64,000 nt of DNA from Sedimentisphaerales bacterium (GTDB lineage Bacteria > Planctomycetota > Phycisphaerae > Sedimentisphaerales > Anaerobacaceae): positions 5,696,001 to 5,760,000 of the forward strand of contig OY970194.1 in NCBI GenBank assembly GCA_963708075.1, in the 5' to 3' direction. The translations under genes were made by a program, and so were the position numbers. The notes beneath the pieces are model-generated. The model was not told where the DNA came from. It made no database searches and worked only from the letters and a program-made list of their open reading frames with translations. Positions 6,716 through 35,993 of the stretch are shown here, piece after piece (the stretch's first letter is position 1; every line of letters begins with the position of its first letter).

Positions 6716-8278
6716 ATGCGTGACCCGCGAGCGGCCATTGTGGCGTTTCTGGAGCAGGACAACCTCGGAGTCGGATATCTCGCGTCTATGCTGCTGCAGA
6801 ACCACATCGATGTCGGTATCGTGGACTTCTGTCTCGGCAGGCAATCCATCCTGGAGTATATCCTGCGCACCAAGCCATCCATCGTGGGATTCTCCATCAT
6901 ATTCCAGTACCACATTCATGACTTCAGAGATCTGATGGCGTACCTGAGGACCCACGGTGTCCGTTGTCATTTCACCGCCGGGGGACACTATCCGAGCCTC
7001 AGATATGCCGACCTCCTGGAGCTGATCCCCGACCTGGATTCGGTCGTGCTCTTCGAGGGTGAACGTACGTTCCTGGAGCTGGTCCGCTCCAGCCGCCTGA
7101 AAGGGAAGTGGAAGTCCCTGGAGGGGATCGCCTACCGGCAACGCGGGCGCGCCGTCGCCAATCCGCTGCGTCCGTTGGAAAGCGACCTGGACCGGTTCCC
7201 GCCGCCGGTTCGTCAACCTCTGAAAGAATGCGCGTTCGGCAGGAAATATGCGACCATTCTGGCCGGGCGGGGCTGCTACCACAATTGTGCGTTTTGCAGC
7301 GTTCGCCGGTTTTACTCCGGACCTCCCGGGCCGGTGAAACGAGTCAGACGGCCCGAGATGGTGGTGGCCGAAATGGAACTGATGCATCGTGACCTCGGTT
7401 GCTCCATATTCCTGTTTCAGGACGATGACTTTCCCGTGGCCGGGCGCGCGGGAAAGCAATGGGTGGCGGAATTCTGCAACCTGCTGGTGCAGAAGGACCT
7501 TCACAGAACGGTCATGTGGAAAATCAGTTGCCGGTCTGACGAGGTTCAGGGCGACCTTTTCCGCAGGATGAAAGAAGCCGGCTTATTCTTCGTCTATATG
7601 GGCATTGAAGATGGGACAGAGGAGGGCCTTGCCCTCATGAACAAACGCGTCAGTGCCGACACACACTGCCGGGCGGTGGAGACCCTCAAGAAGCTCGGCA
7701 TGGAGTATGATTTCGGTTTCATGCTCTTTCATCCTGACAGTACGTTCCGGTCTGTCTCGCAGAACCTCGGTTTTCTCAAACGCATTTGCGGCGACGGCTC
7801 CTCGCCCATCACGTTCGGCAAAATGCTGCCGTATGCGGAGACACAAATCGAGTACAGACTCAAGAACGAGGGAAGGCTGAAAGGTCCACCGGGTTTTGAG
7901 GACTACGATTTCGCGCATCCTTCCCTGGATTCCCTGTATCGTCTCATGTCAGAGTGCTTCCGCGAATGGGTCGGCCGGCCCGATGGGCTGCTCAATCTCG
8001 CCAGGTGGGCGCGCTATTCGCTGGGCACGTATCACAAGTACTATCGGAGGACCCGCAAGTCGGCGGCCCTGGAGCGGGCCATGAGAGGGTGTATCGCTCA
8101 GAGTAACCGGTACTTCATCAAGACCGCCAGGGAACTTGTGGCCCTGTTCGAGTCAGCGCGCAATGGCGCCGATGCGGCCGTCTTCGCGTCCATCAGGGAT
8201 ACCGTCACGGACAACCATGCCGAGTTCAAGCAGCGATTGATCCGGGTGATGGATGACATCCGAGCCCTCGCGGAGTAG
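6716..8278 (+). CDS. B12-binding-domain radical SAM protein
   Basis: N-terminal B12-binding domain (NLGVGYLAS, VGFS, AGGHYPS, FEGE); GRGCYHNCAFC; FQDDDF; AAGGAG RBS. Confidence 0.9.
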   Translation: MRDPRAAIVAFLEQDNLGVGYLASMLLQNHIDVGIVDFCLGRQSILEYILRTKPSIVGFSIIFQYHIHDFRDLMAYLRTHGVRCHFTAGGHYPSLRYADLLELIPDLDSVVLFEGERTFLELVRSSRLKGKWKSLEGIAYRQRGRAVANPLRPLESDLDRFPPPVRQPLKECAFGRKYATILAGRGCYHNCAFCSVRRFYSGPPGPVKRVRRPEMVVAEMELMHRDLGCSIFLFQDDDFPVAGRAGKQWVAEFCNLLVQKDLHRTVMWKISCRSDEVQGDLFRRMKEAGLFFVYMGIEDGTEEGLALMNKRVSADTHCRAVETLKKLGMEYDFGFMLFHPDSTFRSVSQNLGFLKRICGDGSSPITFGKMLPYAETQIEYRLKNEGRLKGPPGFEDYDFAHPSLDSLYRLMSECFREWVGRPDGLLNLARWARYSLGTYHKYYRRTRKSAALERAMRGCIAQSNRYFIKTARELVALFESARNGADAAVFASIRDTVTDNHAEFKQRLIRVMDDIRALAE

Positions 8279-8317
8279 AGGAAGCATCTCCGTCTCTTGC
8301 GCGAGCACAGGGTGCCT

Positions 8318-9304
8318 CTATCCAAAGTGCAGTTCGACGACGTCTTTATCGTGGAGGACGTGGGTGAGGTGGACGCTTTGGCCGGGGTAGACGTCGGTGC
8401 CCCAGATGCGGGCGGATTTGAGCTTTTCGGCCAATTCCCGGTGGATCACGGTGGCCATATCCTGGACGGTAGCCCCGGTAGGCAGCGTGAAAGGGGCCTC
8501 CATGTCCGCCGGCTTGCCGGGCGGCTTGGCGTACACGCGAATGATGTTCAACATGCGGAACAGCAGCTCAGCGAACTTGTCAAGGCCCTCGGCGGTCTGC
8601 GTGGAGACCTGGAGAAACTCCATCGGCTTGTCGAACGAGTTCCTGGCCAGCTCGAACGCCCCGGCCGGTGCGATGTCCGCCTTCGTGCAGATGCACACCG
8701 CCTTTCTGCCCAGTGCATTGCCCTGGCCATCCACGGCGGGGGTCTTCTCATCCAGCAACAGGTTGCGGGATTCGAGAAAGTCCATCAGCACCAGGGCCTG
8801 CTCCTCGATATCCTGCGACAGGTCGATCACCACGGCGATGATATCGCCGTTGCGGTAGGTGCCCACCTGGCCGGGCGCAACGAAGTCGGCGGTGATTGGC
8901 GGCATGTCCACGAGCTGAATCTGCACGTCCTCATACTTCACCATCCCCGGCACAGGGGCGTGGGTGGCGAATGGGAAATCGGCAACGACGACCTTGGCAT
9001 TCGTCAACGTGGCCAGCAGACTGCTCTTGCCTGTATTGGGCAGGCCCAGCAGGACGACCTGTCCGGCCCCGGTTCGCGGCACATGGAATACATCCGCGTG
9101 CTTACCGCCCTTTTTCTGCTGGGTGGCGGCCTCCCTGAGGCTGCTAAGCTTGCGGCGAAGATCCGCCCTCAGGCCGTCAGTGCCCTTGTGCTTGGGCATT
9201 ACCGACAGCATCTGCTCCAGCGCGAGGATCTTCTCCTCGTTGGTCTGGGCACTGCGGAACCATTCCTCCGCCTTCTTGTAGTCTGGTGGTAAGTTTGCAG
9301 GCAC
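8318..9304 (-). CDS. DRG/OBG-family GTPase with TGS domain
   Basis: MPANLPP start, PKHKGT, GLPNTGKSS, FPFAT, C-terminal TGS (LHDKDVVELH). Confidence 0.9.
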   Translation of the reverse strand: MPANLPPDYKKAEEWFRSAQTNEEKILALEQMLSVMPKHKGTDGLRADLRRKLSSLREAATQQKKGGKHADVFHVPRTGAGQVVLLGLPNTGKSSLLATLTNAKVVVADFPFATHAPVPGMVKYEDVQIQLVDMPPITADFVAPGQVGTYRNGDIIAVVIDLSQDIEEQALVLMDFLESRNLLLDEKTPAVDGQGNALGRKAVCICTKADIAPAGAFELARNSFDKPMEFLQVSTQTAEGLDKFAELLFRMLNIIRVYAKPPGKPADMEAPFTLPTGATVQDMATVIHRELAEKLKSARIWGTDVYPGQSVHLTHVLHDKDVVELHFG

Positions 9305-12435: not shown

Positions 12436-13487
12436 AACACAGGAATGATGAGGACCGGCTCGACGAAATCATCGCCCGGGCCGTCGATCTCGGCAAGGTC
12501 GAATTCGATCGAAAAGCGTGGCTGGACAGGCTGGCCGCACAAGGGCCAAGCCTCGACAGCCGCCAAATGCACCACACGAAATCTGAACCCCACAAGAAGA
12601 TATGGAGAACCGTTATGGAAAGCAGAGTTACGAAATACTCCGTGGCTGCGACGATTCTTGTCGCCGCGTCACTTGTCTTGTTCGATCCGTTGGGTCTGTT
12701 TGGCGGCCGGCACGGCGTCGTTCTGGCCGAAGTGGTCGAGAGAATGAATGACGTCAAGACGATGATACTCAAGGAAAAGAGAGTGTACTACGAGATAGGC
12801 AAAGACGAGCCTTTGCTGAGCACAAATGTGGTCAAGTACCTGTCCTTCGATCGCGGCATCGTCGACGAGCAATACGGCGAAGATGGACGCCTTCAGGGCC
12901 GGGCCTACATCCTGAAGGACCCGCCGCAGATCACCATTGTGCTTGTCGAAGACAAGAAGTACGTGAAGCTGCCGCTGACGGATTCCGCGGCCCGCCTGGT
13001 GGAGCGCCTGACGCCCAAGGCCATCGTGGAGTACTTCAAAGCGGGGGACTGCAAGGACTTGGGCACGGCGACGATCGACGGGCATGAGGCGACGGGGTTT
13101 GAGACGAGAGATACGGGACTCTTTCCCATCTCCGGCCAGTACCGGTTCCTGTTCCCGATCAAAGACATCAGGTGGCAGTTCTGGATCAGTGAGGACCTGC
13201 CGTTTCCCGTGACGGCCGACCTGGAGGTCACGACCGGCCGAGGTCTTTTCACGGTCTTCAAAGAGCTCCGGATCACTTGTCACGACTACGACATGGAGTA
13301 TGACCCGAATATTCCTTCGACGGTGTTCGATCCGAACATCCCCGCCGACTACACGCCGCTGAACCTGGAATCCACCGTGAAAGAGAGCGCCGCCTGGCTG
13401 GGCGTCGGGGGCCTGCCGGTCGTCGGAATCGTGGTTCGCCACCGTCGGAGGCGCACGCATCGTCGCGGGGTCCGTATGGCGACCTGA
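12432..13487 (+). CDS. putative anti-sigma factor, paralogue of 10681-11760
   Basis: ATGA overlap with the sigma gene; TM helix; FDPNIPADY; C-terminal hydrophobic segment plus RHRRRR. Confidence 0.7.
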   Translation: MKHRNDEDRLDEIIARAVDLGKVEFDRKAWLDRLAAQGPSLDSRQMHHTKSEPHKKIWRTVMESRVTKYSVAATILVAASLVLFDPLGLFGGRHGVVLAEVVERMNDVKTMILKEKRVYYEIGKDEPLLSTNVVKYLSFDRGIVDEQYGEDGRLQGRAYILKDPPQITIVLVEDKKYVKLPLTDSAARLVERLTPKAIVEYFKAGDCKDLGTATIDGHEATGFETRDTGLFPISGQYRFLFPIKDIRWQFWISEDLPFPVTADLEVTTGRGLFTVFKELRITCHDYDMEYDPNIPSTVFDPNIPADYTPLNLESTVKESAAWLGVGGLPVVGIVVRHRRRRTHRRGVRMAT

Positions 13488-18251: not shown

Positions 18252-19250
18252 ATGGCACCGAATGTAGCAGTTGTGGGAGTGACCGGCGCGGTCGGTCAGG
18301 AATTCTTATCCATTCTCGAAGAACGGAAGTTCCCGTTCAAGACGCTGCGAGTGCTGGCGAGCAGCCGGTCTGCGGGAAAGAAGGTCCCCTTCAAGGGCAA
18401 GGAATATACGATCGAGGAGCTGGCGCAGGACAGCTTCAAGGGCATCGATATCGCTCTGTTCAGCGCTGGCGCATCGCGGAGCCGCGAGTTCGCATCGGCG
18501 GCGGTGAAGGCCGGGGCGGTCGTCGTGGATAATTCCTCGGCGTTCCGCATGGACCCCCAGGTCCCGCTCGTCATCCCCGAGATCAACCCGCAGAAGATCA
18601 AGGAGCACAAGGGGATCATCGCCAACCCCAACTGCTCCACGATCATCGGCATCGTGCCGATCTGGCCGCTGCACAAGATCAATCCGGTCAAGAGGATGGT
18701 CGTGAGCACGTACCAGGCGGCCAGCGGGGCCGGTATGTCCGCGATGCTGGAGCTCGAAAGCCAGAGCCGCGAGATCCTCGCCGGAAAGCCGCCGACCAAG
18801 AATGTGTTCCCGCACCAGATCGCGTTCAACTGCTTCAGTCACAACTCCGCGCTGGGCCCCAACGGGTACAACGAGGAAGAGACGAAGCTGGTGAAAGAGA
18901 CTCGCAAGATTTTCGATTGCCCGGAGATCGCGATCACGGCGACCTGCGTTCGTATCGCCGTGATGCGGGCGCATTGCGAGAGCATCAACCTCGAATTCAC
19001 GAACCCGATTACGCCGGACCAGGTCCGCGAGATCCTCAAGAAGGCGCCGGGCGTCACGGTCCTCGACGACCGTGAGCACAACCGCTTCCCGATGCCGATC
19101 GACGCCACCGGCAAGGACGACGTCTTCGTCGGGCGAATTCGCCAGGACGAGTCTCTGCCGAACAATCGCGGAATCAACCTCTGGGTCTCCGGCGACCAGT
19201 TGCGCAAGGGCGCCGCCCTGAACGCGATCCAGATCGCCGAGCTGTTGTAG
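18252..19250 (+). CDS. asd: aspartate-semialdehyde dehydrogenase
   Basis: VVGVTGAVG, DNSSAFRM, NPNCST, DQLRKGAALNAIQIAE. Confidence 0.97.
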   Translation: MAPNVAVVGVTGAVGQEFLSILEERKFPFKTLRVLASSRSAGKKVPFKGKEYTIEELAQDSFKGIDIALFSAGASRSREFASAAVKAGAVVVDNSSAFRMDPQVPLVIPEINPQKIKEHKGIIANPNCSTIIGIVPIWPLHKINPVKRMVVSTYQAASGAGMSAMLELESQSREILAGKPPTKNVFPHQIAFNCFSHNSALGPNGYNEEETKLVKETRKIFDCPEIAITATCVRIAVMRAHCESINLEFTNPITPDQVREILKKAPGVTVLDDREHNRFPMPIDATGKDDVFVGRIRQDESLPNNRGINLWVSGDQLRKGAALNAIQIAELL

Positions 19251-26186: not shown

Positions 26187-26311
26187 GTGAAGAGTTACAG
26201 GAAAGAGCTGTGGTTCGATATCCAGCAGAGACGGGAATTCGTCAATATCACGCCGCAGGTGCAGCAGTGCCTGCAGGAAAGCGGGATCAAGGAGGGCTTT
26301 GTGCTGTGCAA
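26187..26311 (+). pseudogene. yjbQ: 5' fragment of host yjbQ (UPF0047), interrupted by the integrated element
   Basis: GTG after [49 protein letters not shown]; joins in frame to NAMHITASV at 35023. Confidence 0.92.
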
Positions 26312-27978
26312 TCACAAGCAGATTTAGTTACTGCACTGACAAGCTCCTTCTGCTTCGGCAGGGGCCAGCCAGCACCGTGCTCGTAGTCTTCTGCCATAGC
26401 GGATTTCAGCTTTTCGCCCCACCGGATCAGACCAGATTCCTCAATCAGGTGGCCATGTATGCTGAACGTCCAGTTTCCTTCCCCATCCCACCGGATATAG
26501 ACGCCCATCCGCTCGCCGTCGGCCATCTTGCCGCTGAACACGGTCTCGACCAATGCCCGCCGCTCCTCATAGGTCATTTTGCTGAGGGGCTTGTGTGCGG
26601 CCAGCCGCTTCCCGGTGCTTATCCGGGCCATGAGGCGTTGGAACTCGGTGGCAACCTTCTTGGATGCCGCCTCGACCCGTTGCGGGCTCGGCAGGGTGCC
26701 GAGATAGTCTGTTAGGGTGATTTGCTCCTCGTGCAGCCGTTGTTCGCGGTCCTTCGTTTCTAACAGAAGCTTGTCAGCCATAGCCTCATCCAAGGTGCCC
26801 TTGAGAACGCGACGGCCAAGCGCCTCCTTGCCTTCCTCGATCTTCTTCAACTCAGCGTCGATGCGGTTAAGTTTCTGTCTGTAGGCTTTGACCTTTTCAA
26901 CATCGCCGGATGCCGCCGAGATCGCACGTTGGATGGCGAGCGGATTGCCGAAGGTCCCGAACAGATGGAGTATCACCAGTTCCTCAACCTCGTCTGCCGG
27001 AATCCACGTCTTGTTAGGCTGGTCGCATGCCTTTACACGTCTTGTATGGGCGTGCCGATAGTATCGCTGTTCATGCTTGCGGTGGTTGGTCTGGCCGAAC
27101 ATGGCATACCCACAGTGCTCGCAGAAGATCATCCGCGACAACAAATAGGTGTGCTTGCTATGGCCATGTGTATAAGTCTTGTTGGCTTGTGTCTTTTGCC
27201 TGATCGCCTGTATGGTTGCCTCTGGAAGCAGGCGGGGGATTTGCGTCACTACGACTTCAGGCGGCCTGTTTACCGGTCGGAAGGTCTGGACCCATCCATC
27301 GCCACACCGCTGAGTCAGCGTCTTCCACAAGCTGGCGTTGTTCACCCCCAGTTCATCCGCCAATGCCTGCATCGACTCGCCAGCAAGGTACCGCTTTGCT
27401 ATGCCCGCGATGATCGCCTGCTTGTCGTTGTCAATTCCCCATTGCTCCGTTTCCTTGTTCCACGTCCGCCCCCAAGGCCGCTTGCCGCACGCGGAGCATC
27501 CACGCTTCGCTCTCTTGATGCGAGAGGCAAGCGACCTCTGTTTTTGGCTGCGAGCCTGAAATGCCCCAAACACCGTGCCCATGTCGATAAACAGCCGGTG
27601 TTCAGGGCAGTTTAGATCGTATTCCGTGGCACCGATGAAGAACTTGATGCCATGCTCAACAAACAGGTCCAGACCTTGATGTGATTTGGCGTTGTCTCGG
27701 CTCCATCGGTCACCCTTGTCTACGATGACGGCATCGAACCGCCCTCTGCCTGCGTCAGCCAAGAGCCGGTCAATCTCCTTCTTTTCATAGCCTGCGGTCG
27801 CGTGCTCCTGCCCGCCATACCATTCGATGATCTGTCCGCCAAGCAATTCAACGGCTCCTTCGATCTGCTCCTTCTGGACATGTAGGCTCTCGCCCTTCTT
27901 GTCCTGCCCCTCGGTAGATACTCGCCGCAACGCACCGAATCTGCATGGTGCTGCTGCCTGCCCCTGCTGCTTGGCCAT
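26287..27978 (-). CDS. large serine recombinase (integrase)
   Basis: RRVSTEGQ catalytic Ser, DRWSR, recombinase domain, [12 protein letters not shown] zinc ribbon, coiled coil; 3' end crosses attL. Confidence 0.93.
26308..26337. other. attL (core GCAA plus element arm)
   Basis: GCAA-TCACAAGCAGATTTA-GTTACTGCACT; arm mirrors the attR arm. Confidence 0.85.
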
Positions 27979-28244
27979 ACGCCTGACCTTTCTGCTTGAC
28001 CGTTCAAGAGTAGGGGGCGGCATGATTGCCGGTCAAGCGGAGCAATCCGGCTCAGGGGATCAATCCCAAGCCGCTTGCCGCCCCAACCTAATTGCACTAT
28101 CTTGCTCACTGCTGTGGGACCCACACGCAGTTTTGTAGATATATTGGTTTCCTGTCGCCTGGGTGCAGAAGACAGTGACATTTCCCGCTTCTTAATGGCT
28201 CCTGAGTTGAAAGACCATGCATGACCATGTACTCAACTTTCCCC

Positions 28245-29054
28245 CTACTCTCTGGATGGCATTAAAGGCGGATTCTCGTATCCGTTCTCGCCAAAAGATT
28301 CCCTGAAAAACTCTGACAAAAATGTGCGGTGCCTTGCTGCTCCGCCCCGACCTTCCTGCAATCTGCGATTTCGGTTCTTGTTTTCACCCCTGCCCTCCAT
28401 CGCCTGCACTATCCTCGTCGTCGTACAGTCCAGCCAGCGCCCCTGCATGTCCTCGAAGGCGACATCGGCGTACATATTGGCTGTCGTCACTGGACTGGCA
28501 TGGCCCAACTGTTTCTGTACGAGCCGGAGGTTGCCGCACTTCCTGAGCAAATGCGTAGCCAGCGTGTGCCTCGCGCTGTGGATTGACAGGTCGTCCCGTA
28601 GGCCCGCAAGAGCAACAGCCCTCTTCCATGCCTGCTGTGCGCCTCGGTTTGTCAGCGGCCCCCTCTGGCCTACGAACAAAGGCCCATCTGCATCCGTCAG
28701 TCCCTTGTGGTTCGCCTTGTCCATACCCTTGAGCCTATCAGCACGCCATTGCAGATAGGCCCGCAAATGCTGCACGCACTGTTTGCCGTCGATAGCCACT
28801 GTCTCCACGTCCCTCGCCCTCTTCTTTAAGCGGACGACCCTCAAGGCCCCCATCCGCAAATCAACGTCCTGCACTTTCAGGGCGACGAGTTCGCTGACCC
28901 GTAGGCCCGTTGACATCGCCAAGTCCACGACCGCCCACGCCAACACGCCGTTGACGCGACCATATCGGAGGTCGGTTATGGCTCTGGCCTCTGTCATCGT
29001 TCGCAGCTTTCTGACTTCGTCCTTACCCATGTACTTGGCTCTATCAACACTCAT
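28245..29054 (-). CDS. short tyrosine recombinase (catalytic domain only); possible frameshift near 28440, natural stop possibly 28384
   Basis: TGLRVSEL, HSARH, QLGH, TTANMY; one extra G in the GGGG run would give ...MQGALAGLYDDEDSAGDGGQG*. Confidence 0.9.
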   Translation of the reverse strand: MSVDRAKYMGKDEVRKLRTMTEARAITDLRYGRVNGVLAWAVVDLAMSTGLRVSELVALKVQDVDLRMGALRVVRLKKRARDVETVAIDGKQCVQHLRAYLQWRADRLKGMDKANHKGLTDADGPLFVGQRGPLTNRGAQQAWKRAVALAGLRDDLSIHSARHTLATHLLRKCGNLRLVQKQLGHASPVTTANMYADVAFEDMQGRWLDCTTTRIVQAMEGRGENKNRNRRLQEGRGGAARHRTFLSEFFRESFGENGYENPPLMPSRE

Positions 29055-30639: not shown

Positions 30640-31332
30640 TCAGAAGTCCTTATCTGCTGCTTTCGCCCTTTCTGCATCAGCACTTTTCTTCTCGTTGTAC
30701 ATTGGTATGTAGCTCATCAATAGGAGGCCTACTTCACTGATCTCTTTGTATGTCAAAACCATCAAAACGTCTTCGGGACCACTAGCTAAACGCCTAGGTC
30801 CACCCCAGGCCCAATCCTCGATAAACGCATTTCGTTGAACCCCCGTGCCATAACGAGCAAACAAAGCATCCTTCAAATACCCATAATTCGATGATCCTTC
30901 TAATTCAACCCAGATGCCGCACAGACGACCCTGATAACAGACATAGGACAAGCTCATTAGTTGGGCATCGCCAATAGATAGCTTATCATTCATACGTGCA
31001 TAGAATTGGTTCCTGGCGTCTTCGGTGGTCAAGACCATATCCTTCATGTCTGCGATATTTGTTCCCCACGGCAACCCTCTAAATCCAGCCCATTTGTCCA
31101 GTTCGGGTTGAGGCGGGGTTGGCGGAGCCTGCTCCGGAGGTGTCGTGACTATGGTCGGCGTTTCTTCTTTCTGTGAGACGGTTGAGGAAACAGATACTTG
31201 GTTATCCTCTTGCTGTTCCTGTTTCTCGGCAGCCGGAGCAGACTCAGGGCGACTCGCGACTGGTGCTGTCGGTTTGTCACTACAGCCAACAAGCACTAAC
31301 GCCATCATCGTGGACAGTAGTGCCATTCTCAT
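30640..31332 (-). CDS. lipoprotein (FRG-x-PWG motif), related to the downstream gene
   Basis: Lipobox LVGC; Pro/Gln linker; FRGLPWGTN. Confidence 0.75.
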   Translation of the reverse strand: MRMALLSTMMALVLVGCSDKPTAPVASRPESAPAAEKQEQQEDNQVSVSSTVSQKEETPTIVTTPPEQAPPTPPQPELDKWAGFRGLPWGTNIADMKDMVLTTEDARNQFYARMNDKLSIGDAQLMSLSYVCYQGRLCGIWVELEGSSNYGYLKDALFARYGTGVQRNAFIEDWAWGGPRRLASGPEDVLMVLTYKEISEVGLLLMSYIPMYNEKKSADAERAKAADKDF

Positions 31333-31507
31333 GTCCTTCTCCCTTCTCATTAGCGGTCATGCCGAAATCTTTGGGTACGGGCCTCTTCACGGTTTCTCCT
31401 GCCTCCTAACGTCCAGCCTGCCAACACACAGTATCAGTATAGCAAATGACGTCTCCGGACACAAGCCCATCCAGCAGTATGTCGCTCATTGGGTTTTGTC
31501 TGCTCTT

Positions 31508-31581: not shown

Positions 31582-31780
31582 ACCCGCGTCTCGGCGGGTT
31601 TCGGGGCATCTCATCCAATTGTCCGATGTCTGACAAACTCAATAGCGATGTTGCGGGAAGAAAATGTTCTGTTCTCGCGAGTTCCTGCTCGGACCTCCCG
31701 GCGGCACACCGTTAGAGTCGCTGTCAGTAGCCGATTGCAGTTCGGCACGTACGATGAAACCTCTTTCAAGGAGTAAAGCA

Positions 31781-32020
31781 ATGGCAGCGAAGAAGAACAC
31801 GACGGCGGGCACCGGGAAGCAGAAGGCAGCCGCGAAGCTGGATGCGTTTGGCAGCCGGGTGGGCAGTAAGGCGGCGAAGGTAAATGCGATGCTGGGCAAG
31901 GAGCCTGTCACGATGAAGCAAATCAGGGAGAAGGTGGGTCATAACTATTACAATCACCTCGGCGACCTCATCAAGGCGGGGAAGGTCAAGAAGACCGACG
32001 ATGGATACGTGATCGCTTAA
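31781..32020 (+). CDS. small basic protein, probable winged-helix DNA-binding
   Basis: AAGGAG RBS; Lys/Ala-rich N-terminus; VTMKQIREKVGHNYYNHLGDLIKAGKVKKTDDGY; followed by a terminator. Confidence 0.75.
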   Translation: MAAKKNTTAGTGKQKAAAKLDAFGSRVGSKAAKVNAMLGKEPVTMKQIREKVGHNYYNHLGDLIKAGKVKKTDDGYVIA

Positions 32021-32323: not shown

Positions 32324-33028
32324 ATGCACATGGCAAGATTGTCTGTTCTGTTGGTGGCGGCTTTAATGCTTCTGTGTGGGTGTGCTTCTGTTTTGGTGAG
32401 ATACAATTACTCCCCACAGCCGACAGAAACAAGTGAGCCGCCATTGAATACTGTTGTGACTGCGTATGTAGGGGACAATCTGGTTCGACAGGGGCAGTAC
32501 ACGGAACACGATGCAATCTATCTGCGGCAGGACGTGAGAGTAGGAATAATAGGAGAAGTCATGATCATGCGAGGGTACTATCTAAAGGTGGGAGAGGATG
32601 CCACATCGGAGTTCTATCGTACGGCCGGTGGTTCAGATTCAGGACAGATAGTCGTAGCTGCGGCCGCGGTACCGGTTTGTGCACTGCGTGTAGATAGGCG
32701 GGATGGCAGACTCTGTGCTGTGGCGGTAAAGGGGGGGGAAGACTGCACGGCTAAGGCAGACTATGAGAGGAAGAAATATCCGGTGACAGGTGCCGCTGAC
32801 TTCCAGCAGACTCTTATTTACAGTGGAAAGGTGGGGGACAAGATCAACATCGGGTACCGAGAGTTCTCAGGTAGTCGGGCGAGACCTGCTTTCAACAATG
32901 AAGTGGAGTATGACCTATCGCAGTCAAAGACCATTGGGTACAAGGGAGCCCGGATTGAAGTCATTGAAGCCACTAACGAGTACATCAAGTACAAGGTTAT
33001 TTCGAACTTCAACAAAGCACAGTATTAA
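32324..33028 (+). CDS. hypothetical lipoprotein
   Basis: AAGGAG RBS; lipobox LCGC; FQQTLIYSGKVGDKINIGYREF...EVEYDL. Confidence 0.8.
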   Translation: MHMARLSVLLVAALMLLCGCASVLVRYNYSPQPTETSEPPLNTVVTAYVGDNLVRQGQYTEHDAIYLRQDVRVGIIGEVMIMRGYYLKVGEDATSEFYRTAGGSDSGQIVVAAAAVPVCALRVDRRDGRLCAVAVKGGEDCTAKADYERKKYPVTGAADFQQTLIYSGKVGDKINIGYREFSGSRARPAFNNEVEYDLSQSKTIGYKGARIEVIEATNEYIKYKVISNFNKAQY

Positions 33029-33217: not shown

Positions 33218-34000
33218 TCAACCGCACTCTTTCAGCCAGTTCGCAACTGTGGTGTGCGATATGCCGCAACCGTCCGGCGACATATCCCTCAGCCGGTCTC
33301 GGATTTCCCGGCAGCTCAGTCCCGCATCATGCAGCCGACATGCCTCTGGCTGCAATCTCGCCTTCCGCCGTTTGCACCGACCCGGTTTCCTATCCCCGCC
33401 GCCTTTCCGCCCCTTGAACTGCTGCGCCCAGCGTGTTCGATAACTCTGCACCTCTCGGGGCGTCAGATCAGGAAACAGGTATGTGAGCAAGGGTACACCG
33501 CCGGTCAGTTCCTTCAGCTTACAGAACTCGGCCTCCGTTGGCGTTGCATCCGGGTTCGTCTCGGAATTGTAGTCCGCGTTCCTGACGAACCGGTCGGTGC
33601 ACGGTGCCAGCACAGCCGTATGTCTGCCGGTTTGGGCCTCGTGCTTTCTGGCACACTCAACGGCAGCTATCAGGCGGCCCCTGTTCTCATTGAGAACCCA
33701 GCCGGATATCACGTCGCGGAATACGGCAACGATCCGTATGCCCAGCTTTTTGCATGCCCTCCGTAGGACCCACTCGCAGACCGCCAGATTGCCCTTCCTC
33801 TCCTGCCAGCCGCTGCTGACCCGAACGTAGAGGACTACAGCCAAGTCAGGATGCTTCTTGTGGTAGCCTGCCAAACGGCGTACGAACCTGCCGATATCTT
33901 CGCAGGATTCCAGTTCGATTGGCTTGGGGCAAGGGCGTGCCCTTGCTATCCGTTCTGCCCGTCGGCGTCTTTCTCTGCTCCGCACTGCAATGTCCTTCAC
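33218..34000 (-). CDS. small serine recombinase (resolvase/invertase-like) with C-terminal HTH
   Basis: VLYVRVSSGWQ, FRDVISG, R-x-x-L, DRFVR; GLSCREIRDRL...ISHTTVANWL; start approximate. Confidence 0.8.
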   Translation of the reverse strand: MKDIAVRSRERRRRAERIARARPCPKPIELESCEDIGRFVRRLAGYHKKHPDLAVVLYVRVSSGWQERKGNLAVCEWVLRRACKKLGIRIVAVFRDVISGWVLNENRGRLIAAVECARKHEAQTGRHTAVLAPCTDRFVRNADYNSETNPDATPTEAEFCKLKELTGGVPLLTYLFPDLTPREVQSYRTRWAQQFKGRKGGGDRKPGRCKRRKARLQPEACRLHDAGLSCREIRDRLRDMSPDGCGISHTTVANWLKECG

Positions 34001-34219
34001 TCTCTGCTCATAGTTCAAGAAACAGGCAGGGCCAGTGGCCGAGCAGAGAGAAGCCACTATCGGTTGCGAACCGTGGCCCCGCCTATAGATTCACGTAGTT
34101 ACACTGTCATTATCGTACGGCATCAGAGCCCTAAGACCGGGAATCGCATGTTTCTTGTATCAAGAAAAGGGCGACCCCGCCCAACTACCCTCTGAGGGGA
34201 AATAATCGATTCTGTGAGC

Positions 34220-34516
34220 TTAAACACGCGATTTCTCGCGGTGCACGGGCAAGGGTTTGGCCCTCTCAGACCCCTTCTGGAAGGGTCTGGCCGCGTAGAG
34301 CGGACAAGCGGGGTCGGTGCACAGCGTTACCTCCTGCCTGACCCATCCGCAGCACTCCAAGCACTGCGCTTTGATCGCCGCAGCTTTGCTCCCGTTGACG
34401 GCTCGCTCGTATGTCCTGCGGCACTTCGGCGGCATCTGGGCGAGGCGTTCCTCGATCTGCTGCTGGCGGTTAGGGCTTGTGGGCGCAGCCTGCTTTTTGA
34501 CTTGCGTACTCTGCAT
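34220..34516 (-). CDS. small Cys-rich phage-like protein (putative Zn-binding)
   Basis: [20 protein letters not shown]...[17 protein letters not shown]. Confidence 0.7.
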
Positions 34517-34538
34517 GAATGTGTTCTCCTTTTCAGCT

Positions 34539-34955
34539 ATGAAATCCCTGACAAAAGAAATCTGGATGAACGTGCCCCAACGCAGGGCAATCGTATCCAT
34601 TCACAACGAGGTGGAGAGGCTGGTTGGCGAAAGCAGCGTCCGGGATGGTCTGGTACTGGTGAATGCGATGCACATCACGGCCAGTGTCTTCATCAACGAT
34701 GACGAACCCGGCTTGCACCACGACTACGAGGTATGGTTGGAAAAGCTCGCCCCGGAGAAGCCATATAGCCAGTACGAGCACAATGGATCTGAAGATAACG
34801 CTGATGCCCACCTGAAACGACAGGTCATGGGCCGCGAGGTTGTAATCGCCATCACGGACGGCAAGCTGCACTTGGGGCCGTGGGAGCACATCTTCTACTT
34901 TGAGTTCGATGGCAACCGACGGAAACGCATCCTGGTCAAGATAATTGGCGAATAG
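34539..34955 (+). CDS. yjbQ: complete element-borne yjbQ (UPF0047 / secondary thiamine-phosphate synthase family)
   Basis: Full-length 138 aa; [45 protein letters not shown]. Confidence 0.93.
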
Positions 34956-34994
34956 CATCGATGTCTCTCGCTTCTCTTGTTCCGGACAGGGTAA

Positions 34995-35026
34995 AGTGCA
35001 ATGAGTAACAATTTTGTACGTAGCAA
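34995..35026. other. attR (element arm plus GCAA core)
   Basis: AGTGCAATGAGTAAC-AATTTTGTACGTA-GCAA; AGTAAC lies 15 bp from the central AA, mirroring GTTACT at attL. Confidence 0.85.
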
Positions 35027-35318
35027 CGCCATGCACATCACGGCCAGCGTCTTTATCAACGATGATGAGCAGGGCCTGCACCAGGACTTTGAGACCTGGC
35101 TCGAAAAGCTCGCCCCGGAAAAACCTTACAGCCAGTACCGGCACAACACCTATGAGGACAACGCGGATGCTCACCTGAAGCGCACTGTCATGGGTCGGGA
35201 GGTGGTCGTCGCCGTGACCGGCGGCAAGCTCGACTTCGGTCCGTGGGAGCAGATCTTTTACGGCGAATTCGACGGCAAACGAAGCAAACGTGTCCTGGTC
35301 AAGATCATCGGTGAATAG
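35023..35318 (+). pseudogene. yjbQ: 3' fragment of host yjbQ
   Basis: [18 protein letters not shown]...DNADAHLKR...[14 protein letters not shown]; complements the 26187-26311 fragment. Confidence 0.92.
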
Positions 35319-35330
35319 GCGGTCGCTCGC

Positions 35331-35993
35331 ATGGCATTACTCCTTTTTCTCCTGAAAGTCGTGGGGATATCCCTGTCCGGAGCGTTGGCTCCCGGCCCGG
35401 TCACCGCCGCCGCCATCGGCATGGGATCGGGCGATCGGTTTGCCGGCGCGCTCATGGCAGTTGGCCACGGCATCGTGGAGTTTCCGCTCATGGTGCTGCT
35501 TCTTGCAGGCGTCGGCCGGCTGCTGAAACTCTCTTACGTGAAGATTGTCATCGGTCTTGCCGGTGGCGGCTTTTTGATCTTCCTGGCAGTTCAAATGTTC
35601 CAAGGGCTTGGAAGCTCCGGCGCTGAGACAGCGCAGACGACAGGGGGCAACCCGCTTGCAGCCGGTATCCTCCTGTCGGCGGGCAATCCCTATTTTCTCG
35701 TGTGGTGGGCCACGGTGGGCTTGACCCTGATTACGACGTCCAAGAGTAATTTTGGGCCCGGGGCTTTCGGGCTCATGGCCGTGGCCCACTGGTCGTGCGA
35801 TCTTGTCTGGCTCACCGCCCTGTCCTGGGCCAGTTTCAAGGGCTCGACGCTCCTGGGACCGGCGGGACAGCGTATCGTGCTCGCCATCTGTGCGGCGGCG
35901 ATGCTCGGCTTTGGGCTGTACTTCATCCTGCTGCAGGGGATCACATTGAAACGCACGAACAGGACTCTCGCCAAGCCGCTCTCGGGGCAATAA
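35331..35993 (+). CDS. LysE-family translocator
   Basis: SGALAPGP, GHGIVE, NPYFLVWW. Confidence 0.85.
   Translation: MALLLFLLKVVGISLSGALAPGPVTAAAIGMGSGDRFAGALMAVGHGIVEFPLMVLLLAGVGRLLKLSYVKIVIGLAGGGFLIFLAVQMFQGLGSSGAETAQTTGGNPLAAGILLSAGNPYFLVWWATVGLTLITTSKSNFGPGAFGLMAVAHWSCDLVWLTALSWASFKGSTLLGPAGQRIVLAICAAAMLGFGLYFILLQGITLKRTNRTLAKPLSGQ

Follow-up and report, generated by a model that had tools for sequence, protein, structure and literature searches.

An integrative element of 8,715 bp carries its attachment site inside the 3' end of its own large serine integrase gene, and the free and integrated states of the element encode different C-termini of the enzyme. It lies within the window, by which we mean the whole 64,000-nt stretch of DNA analysed here. 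Comparison of related sequences indicates that this layout is real, conserved and probably functional. An att site inside the integrase gene has already been published for serine integrases, in the rumA ICEs and phage Goe14 (published systems are described throughout from the accessible parts of the reports). New here are the integrase family, the yjbQ target, the exchange of a single strand, a host-completed stop codon and a natural free circle carrying the full form. The choice of direction by large serine integrases is under active study, and for the serine examples already in print whose att lies in the gene, the accessible text holds no functional tests; the present exchange, narrowed to ~15 conserved residues of which two are key hydrophobic ones, offers a clean test system.

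The element, its target gene and the two integrase ends

The element interrupts a host yjbQ gene (UPF0047) at an Asn codon, with 4 bp identical at its two ends (26308-26311 and 35023-35026). Once joined, the host flanks form a single uninterrupted yjbQ frame of 138 codons. The junctions and the integrase gene comprise the following features.

26187..26311, + strand: host yjbQ 5' part, codons 1-41 plus AA of the Asn codon; in frame with 35027-35318
26287..26310, - strand: integrated-form integrase end, 7 codons plus stop, antisense of host yjbQ
26287..27978, - strand: large serine integrase (PF00239, PF13408, PHROG 95 integrase)
26308..26311: left junction core, with the crossover dinucleotide AA at 26310-26311; same dinucleotide and codon at the junctions of relatives
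26312..26337, - strand: element att arm within the integrase coding sequence, with a 6-bp inverted motif common to the far arm
34936..35025, - strand: excised-form integrase end, 29 codons plus stop, read only with the element ends joined
34981..35001, - strand: conserved strand motif a little beyond the att arm, in codons 9-15 past the crossover (F-x-L at codons 11-13)
35023..35026: right junction core, with the far att arm at about 34999-35024
35027..35318, + strand: host yjbQ 3' part (UPF0047 match)

The 6-bp inverted motif of the near and far att arms sits 16-21 bp from the core. Across 10 attP sites the arms are symmetric about the central dinucleotide at 8-17 of 26 positions; the window attP is symmetric at 9 of 26, plus the 6-bp outer motif. 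The residues encoded by the near arm are the most conserved of the integrase after residue 512. The right junction, in its integrated form, is covered by one contig of run X1. A second copy was not found in the element's own genome, and the attP joint was not seen in three contig sets, at a depth too low to mean absence.

The integrase is 563 aa long in the integrated state and 585 aa in the excised state (578 and 600 aa if begun at an upstream ATG at 28023). Its N-terminal resolvase domain matches PF00239 (E 3.6e-16), the catalytic serine of R-V-S being invariant in 70 aligned homologues, and its zinc-ribbon matches PF13408 (E 8e-12). The zinc-ribbon contains an inserted coiled coil: both homologue AlphaFold models place a pair of long helices between its two halves. 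PF07508, the Recombinase DNA-binding domain, gave no Pfam match at E 0.001; the two homologue models align through this region to the SPbeta, Bxb1 and LI integrases.

In the integrated form, the reading frame passes the left core and stops in host DNA at 26289-26287, 7 codons on (a shared Cys plus 6). In the excised form, 29 codons (Cys plus 28) are read before the stop, which lies at 34938-34936 and gives a 20-nt overlap with the carried yjbQ at 34539-34955. The first-pass annotation had described the frame crossing attL, the stop in host DNA and the joined-end tail, and all of its positions hold; the convergent overlap of the excised tail with the 3' end of the carried yjbQ is likewise present in the window. 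It had also proposed that the exchange of a 6-aa for a 28-aa tail could control the stability or directionality of the integrase. The C-terminus does change, but the real unit is ~15 conserved codons (see below).

Conservation of the layout among relatives

Relatives were drawn from species genomes (11), from metagenomes (the best 80 of 92) and from loci in genome samples. Those in species genomes are mostly from Planctomycetota, also from Verrucomicrobia and Neomarinimicrobiota; in the genome samples the family occurred in 4/401 for the phylum and 2/401 for the class, own genome included. The 95 related loci examined (including the best 80 of 92 from metagenomes) fall into three sets: 34 combine the integrase 3' end with a yjbQ junction, 38 have the 3' end only and 23 lack it. 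The 34 double-positive loci collapse to 25 non-redundant ones. In these the junction was located by matching yjbQ, with no reference to the integrase frame.

The integrase frame is open across the crossover in all 25 of these loci, and in 24 it is the same frame as in the window; L006 alone crosses in a different one. The contig of L069 terminates with the frame still open and was scored as open. Homologous elements do, as the first-pass annotation had asked, place att inside the integrase 3' end, and none of the 25 stops before it. Pairwise identity among the integrases compared, other than the window's own, is 36-61%. A sequencing error or lost stop as the origin of the read-through was ruled out by its recurrence in 25/25 loci and by L013 (61% identical), which has the same junction.

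The crossover is invariably at AA of the same yjbQ Asn codon. On the integrase strand this reads TT in 23 loci and AA in two; insertion therefore occurs in both orientations. In 12 of the 25 loci a stop codon follows the crossover at once; it combines the final base of the core with two bases of a host Val codon. Where the host codon is not Val, the frame continues for 7-36 codons of unconserved sequence. Integrated tails are thus 0-36 codons long and arbitrary, set by the host codon before the Asn. Since the stop is completed by host bases at the crossover, many homologues that seemingly end at att use a host stop. Two of the related loci have further features at the integrase gene or the target: about 1.3 kb interrupts the gene in L008 (10750-12050), and L009 has a second 3' yjbQ piece (13045-13335) 1.1 kb behind the element, possibly from an earlier insertion.

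The element family apparently uses targets besides yjbQ. In the 38 loci without a yjbQ junction, junctions judged by eye fell in genes for a protein kinase, radC, an arsC-like phosphatase, comEC and a yjbQ paralogue; the target families were confirmed for one locus each, and these loci were left out of the counts. A blind scan for the far ends at non-yjbQ targets yielded chance matches only. The ends of a comEC-targeting member share 18 bp (L010 11671-11688; L102 about 18847-18864), versus 2-4 bp in yjbQ members. In viral contigs there were 20 pattern matches and none was confirmed, and a homologue search with the C-terminus alone returned only the query itself.

The excised-form tail

Homology to yjbQ located the far end of nine elements: the window's and those of L005, L009, L011, L013, L071, L087, L096 and L099 (the L011 reading frame was assumed from the family register, its integrase end being off the contig). 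All nine reconstructed arms are open for at least 17 codons in the integrase frame and contain F-x-[LVF] beginning at codon 10, 11 or 12. The motif occurs in none of the nine in either of the other two frames, and 20,000 shuffles beyond the att arm gave at most 4/9. At the first, second and third codon positions, nucleotide identity is 0.46/0.58/0.30 within the strand; the att arm has 0.41/0.40/0.55. As the motif was defined post hoc and codon-position identity was registered on the Phe, both statistics are partly circular and overstated. The motif is displaced between elements only by multiples of 3 nt. From these sequence patterns, the att arm is seen to be conserved as DNA and the strand segment as protein.

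Excised tails span 17-37 codons, with conservation limited to ~15; beyond codon 15, both length and sequence vary. The expectation that homologues conserve the attP-form tail was thus borne out for ~15 codons but not for the remainder. Free and integrated C-termini differ in each of the nine reconstructed elements, and the full form is seen directly in a circular contig, L032. This contig of 9,401 bp has a 127-bp terminal repeat and an intact symmetric attP, with the integrase reading through into the motif; the repeat, the unsplit attP and the read-through together identify it as an assembled free circle. A second unsplit attP, in L062, has a carried yjbQ behind it and Leu replacing the Phe of the motif. 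The comEC element (L010/L102) has a strand-like tail too, in a different register. Among 277 database homologues, 12 end in F-x-[LVF] after arm-encoded residues (16 pattern matches minus 4 discarded by eye). With so few carrying the motif, most database entries of this family represent the trimmed, integrated form, and genome-engineering work that takes its integrases from sequenced genomes may assay the wrong form.

Judged by its codon pattern, the excised-form tail is selected as protein. This conservation makes a functional difference between the full and trimmed integrase likely.

L032 also encodes DUF2213 and an ORF that by eye resembles a terminase large subunit, with no Pfam match (313-876 and 7467-8900), and an ORF in L010 (7048-7890) is similar to the terminase-like one. 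Some family members may be phage satellites; the window element is without the DUF2213 and terminase-like ORFs of L032.

Predicted structure

Two natural full forms were modelled with AlphaFold. For P0011, with 148 mostly integrated sequences, the core had a mean pLDDT of 89 and the tail (residues 516-543) was disordered, at pLDDT <50. For P0124, with an alignment of 15 natural full forms, the motif lay in a paired strand (546-555, pLDDT 59-63) after a linker at pLDDT 37-50. Both models match the SPbeta, Bxb1, phiC31 and LI integrases. The solved integrases align just to model residue 510-518, with SPbeta 533-537 equivalent to model 512-514; on this alignment the integrated form retains every canonical domain, the switched piece being an addition. 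The P0124 model suggests that the switched segment is an extra beta-strand beyond the canonical fold. In SPbeta, F532 is required for excision and contacts the directionality factor, according to the accessible text (bioRxiv 10.1101/2025.01.03.631226). F532 lies in the SPbeta strand that matches the last canonical strand of the homologue models. Predicting the zinc-ribbon region and the tail as a complex gave a score of 0.00, which is uninformative either way.

Proposed mechanism and alternative explanations

Large serine integrases use a separate recombination directionality factor for excision. The element is a small integrative island with attP embedded in the last codons of its large serine integrase gene. 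The sequences show that the free circle encodes the full enzyme, with a conserved amphipathic F-x-L segment at its end, encoded a short way past the far att arm. Recombination at AA of the yjbQ Asn codon carries this segment to the element's other end, leaving an integrated enzyme with its canonical domains whole, followed by an immediate end or by host-derived junk. In the mechanism that we propose, the recombination state would set the enzyme state, as in Mx8. In the full enzyme, we infer, the F-x-L strand docks back on the zinc-ribbon domain beside the last canonical strand, whose SPbeta counterpart lines the directionality-factor pocket. A whole carried yjbQ may, in some members, compensate for the gene disruption. 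As the strand is translated solely from the circle, selection on it must operate in the free state, in which the enzyme has to integrate; and with an integrated end that is arbitrary and in many cases missing, the integrated form functions, if it does so at all, as the core alone. From the sequences, the models and the analogies combined, we judge the chances about even that the strand docks near the direction-control surface and favours attP x attB, its loss giving a weaker or excision-permissive enzyme. The disordered tail of the P0011 model, the low confidence (pLDDT about 60) of the strand in the P0124 model, L062 without its Phe, L010/L102 in another register and L006 in another frame all argue against a one-strand mechanism. 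Sequence would not be expected to discriminate between a strand acting as an integration promoter, as an excision block or as a fold stabiliser.

The strand could be a built-in directionality factor, although we hold this unlikely: docked, it would lock the integrating state, and integration alone would flip the enzyme to excision by means of a host-supplied stop and no partner protein, the family steering direction by rewriting its own gene. No directionality-factor candidate conserved among the elements compared was found. Similarly doubtful is a direction switch in which the strand fills the directionality-factor pocket or fixes the coiled coil, the full form only integrating and the trimmed form excising, perhaps factor-free. 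The modelled position of the strand, beyond the canonical fold and after the strand matching the SPbeta toggle region, speaks for such a switch, as does a like proposal by the authors of the Goe14 work for a phage described in the accessible text as without a sprB equivalent (bioRxiv 10.1101/2021.11.22.469490). Against it, an integrated form that never ceased to excise would destabilise the island unless its transcription were tightly controlled, and the element's unnamed ORFs could include a conventional directionality factor.

Of the docking strand and its competitors, the remaining ones are less probable still. Small non-polar pairs terminate several natural full forms, as they might if the excised-form end were a degradation signal or half-life determinant limiting the integrase after excision; we nevertheless find this very improbable, since conservation falls on internal codons (9-15), the final residues differ, the length ranges over 17-37 codons, and 0/9 reconstructed tails end in AA or VA. 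The terminal residues of the excised form vary among 12 arms. There is also little reason to favour a strand needed for excision or folding, with the integrated copy crippled and the island leaving by means of full-length enzyme in trans or of a tandem junction. The ending of 12/25 integrated forms at the crossover would suit it, and excision by SPbeta depends on C-terminal aromatic residues in the accessible account (bioRxiv 10.1101/2025.01.03.631226); these SPbeta residues, however, align to the strand that both forms retain, and a low steady rate of circles and full forms (L032; 12/277) fits excision by the resident enzyme. Finally, the arrangement might involve no regulation, only compaction, the tail motif reflecting a signal in the DNA, for instance the ribosome-binding site and start codon from which the 3' yjbQ remnant would be translated on the opposite strand. 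The window does have an ATG at 35001, in frame with 3' yjbQ, after a purine-rich stretch coinciding with the motif, and L013, L096 and L099 have an in-frame ATG likewise. The frame of the 3' remnant is, however, stopped in L005 and L071, the motif is retained in L009 and L011, whose arm faces the 5' remnant, third codon positions are the most variable and displacements are of whole codons; we regard a DNA signal as highly unlikely.

Comparison with known systems

The SSV1 integrase and the BPs repressor had been proposed as analogies. SSV1-type integrases are tyrosine enzymes with a tRNA target, whose catalytic part is severed by integration into two large parts, and in the BPs repressor recombination in the gene changes the product through a terminal degradation tag. 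The window element does not fall under the SSV1-type definition, having a serine enzyme, a protein-coding target and all canonical domains before the crossover. The likeness to BPs is that recombination alters the product; in the yjbQ family the ends vary, some natural full forms finish in small non-polar pairs, and a conserved terminal tag is not apparent. Closer counterparts are the serine integrases of the rumA ICEs and phage Goe14, and the tyrosine integrase of Mx8.

In the streptococcal rumA ICEs, att lies inside the serine integrase gene, the 3' ends are exchanged with the target and the C-terminus is altered; a functional difference between the integrase forms was proposed, and neither a tail conservation analysis nor a test is reported in the accessible text (PMC4701971). 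They share with the window element a serine integrase, a short direct repeat, att in the gene and a protein-coding target. Hosts and target are other ones, and the window element is without recognised conjugation genes. In the yjbQ family, unlike the rumA ICEs, the swap concerns one short conserved segment, often with an immediate host-completed stop, and takes place in either orientation.

Phage vB_BsuS-Goe14, with spoVK as target, has attP inside the stretch that codes for the C-terminus of a large serine integrase; integration cuts 131 aa, and in the accessible text the long form is proposed to integrate and the short form to excise (bioRxiv 10.1101/2021.11.22.469490). In Goe14 131 aa are removed and a 97-aa ORF remains, whereas the yjbQ family loses 17-37 codons, ~15 of them conserved; and Goe14 is a large phage, whereas the yjbQ family comprises islands of 9-31 kb. 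In Myxococcus phage Mx8, attP lies inside int, and integration gives a new 3' end and changed activity (PMC6070905, PMC4701971), the trimmed integrase being less active (as cited in PMC4701971). Mx8 has a tyrosine integrase, in which 112 residues are swapped for 13, and is, from the accessible reports, the tested case among the systems compared.

SPbeta SprA, Bxb1, phiC31 and LI/A118 resemble the family in domain order, in fold over the canonical length and in symmetric attP arms. The solved chains of SPbeta, Bxb1, phiC31 and LI stop where the yjbQ-family linker starts, and have no aligned counterpart of the att-switched strand. The literature searched, short on subscription journals, contained no report that connects yjbQ or UPF0047 with an integrase; the accessible text of 10.1101/2021.11.05.467528 and PMC12884075 does not mention yjbQ, and supplementary tables of the former may list the family.

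Carried yjbQ genes and other cargo

Between the integrase gene and the right core, the window element carries the following genes.

28245..29054, - strand: tyrosine recombinase (cargo; PF00589), with close copies in L017 and L018
29876..30595, - strand: cargo ORF, no Pfam family
30640..31350, - strand: cargo ORF, no Pfam family; weak spanin-like match
31664..32020, + strand: cargo ORF, no Pfam family
32324..33028, + strand: cargo ORF, no Pfam family; PHROG 1353 (unknown function)
33218..34057, - strand: short second serine-recombinase-like ORF, weak PF00239, with relatives in L003, L096 and L102
34220..34600, - strand: 126-aa Cys-rich ORF, no Pfam or PHROG family
34539..34955, + strand: complete carried yjbQ (UPF0047), at 70 bp from the right core, sharing 78% DNA identity with the 3' part of the host gene

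A whole carried yjbQ is present in 4/9 elements with a located far end, and also in L062 and L030, usually 65-70 bp from the far core. The copies in relatives lie at these positions.

L071, 2431-2853
L011, 279-701
L099, 6909-7343
L030, 8961-9380
L062, 3687-3788

Those of L071, L011 and L062 are placed as in the window; that of L099 is 1 kb inside. Overlap between the tail and the carried yjbQ was rejected as a mechanism, being found in just 2/5 cases. Immunity of the carried yjbQ by recoding was also unsupported: the L011 and L030 copies retain the Cys-Asn codons of the window's target, and the att-region codons of the carried copies show no consistent recoding.

A sigma-70-like promoter was not found at 34100-35400. 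The 126-aa Cys-rich ORF gave no tblastn match in other loci; its atlas look-alikes score <0.9 and are unnamed and mostly viral. At 34985-35003, the purine-rich stretch and the ATG at 35001 could express a 105-aa truncated YjbQ ahead of a LysE-type gene. The window element thus has, besides its integrase, two additional recombinase genes (28245-29054 and 33218-34057), both of which recur in some relatives.
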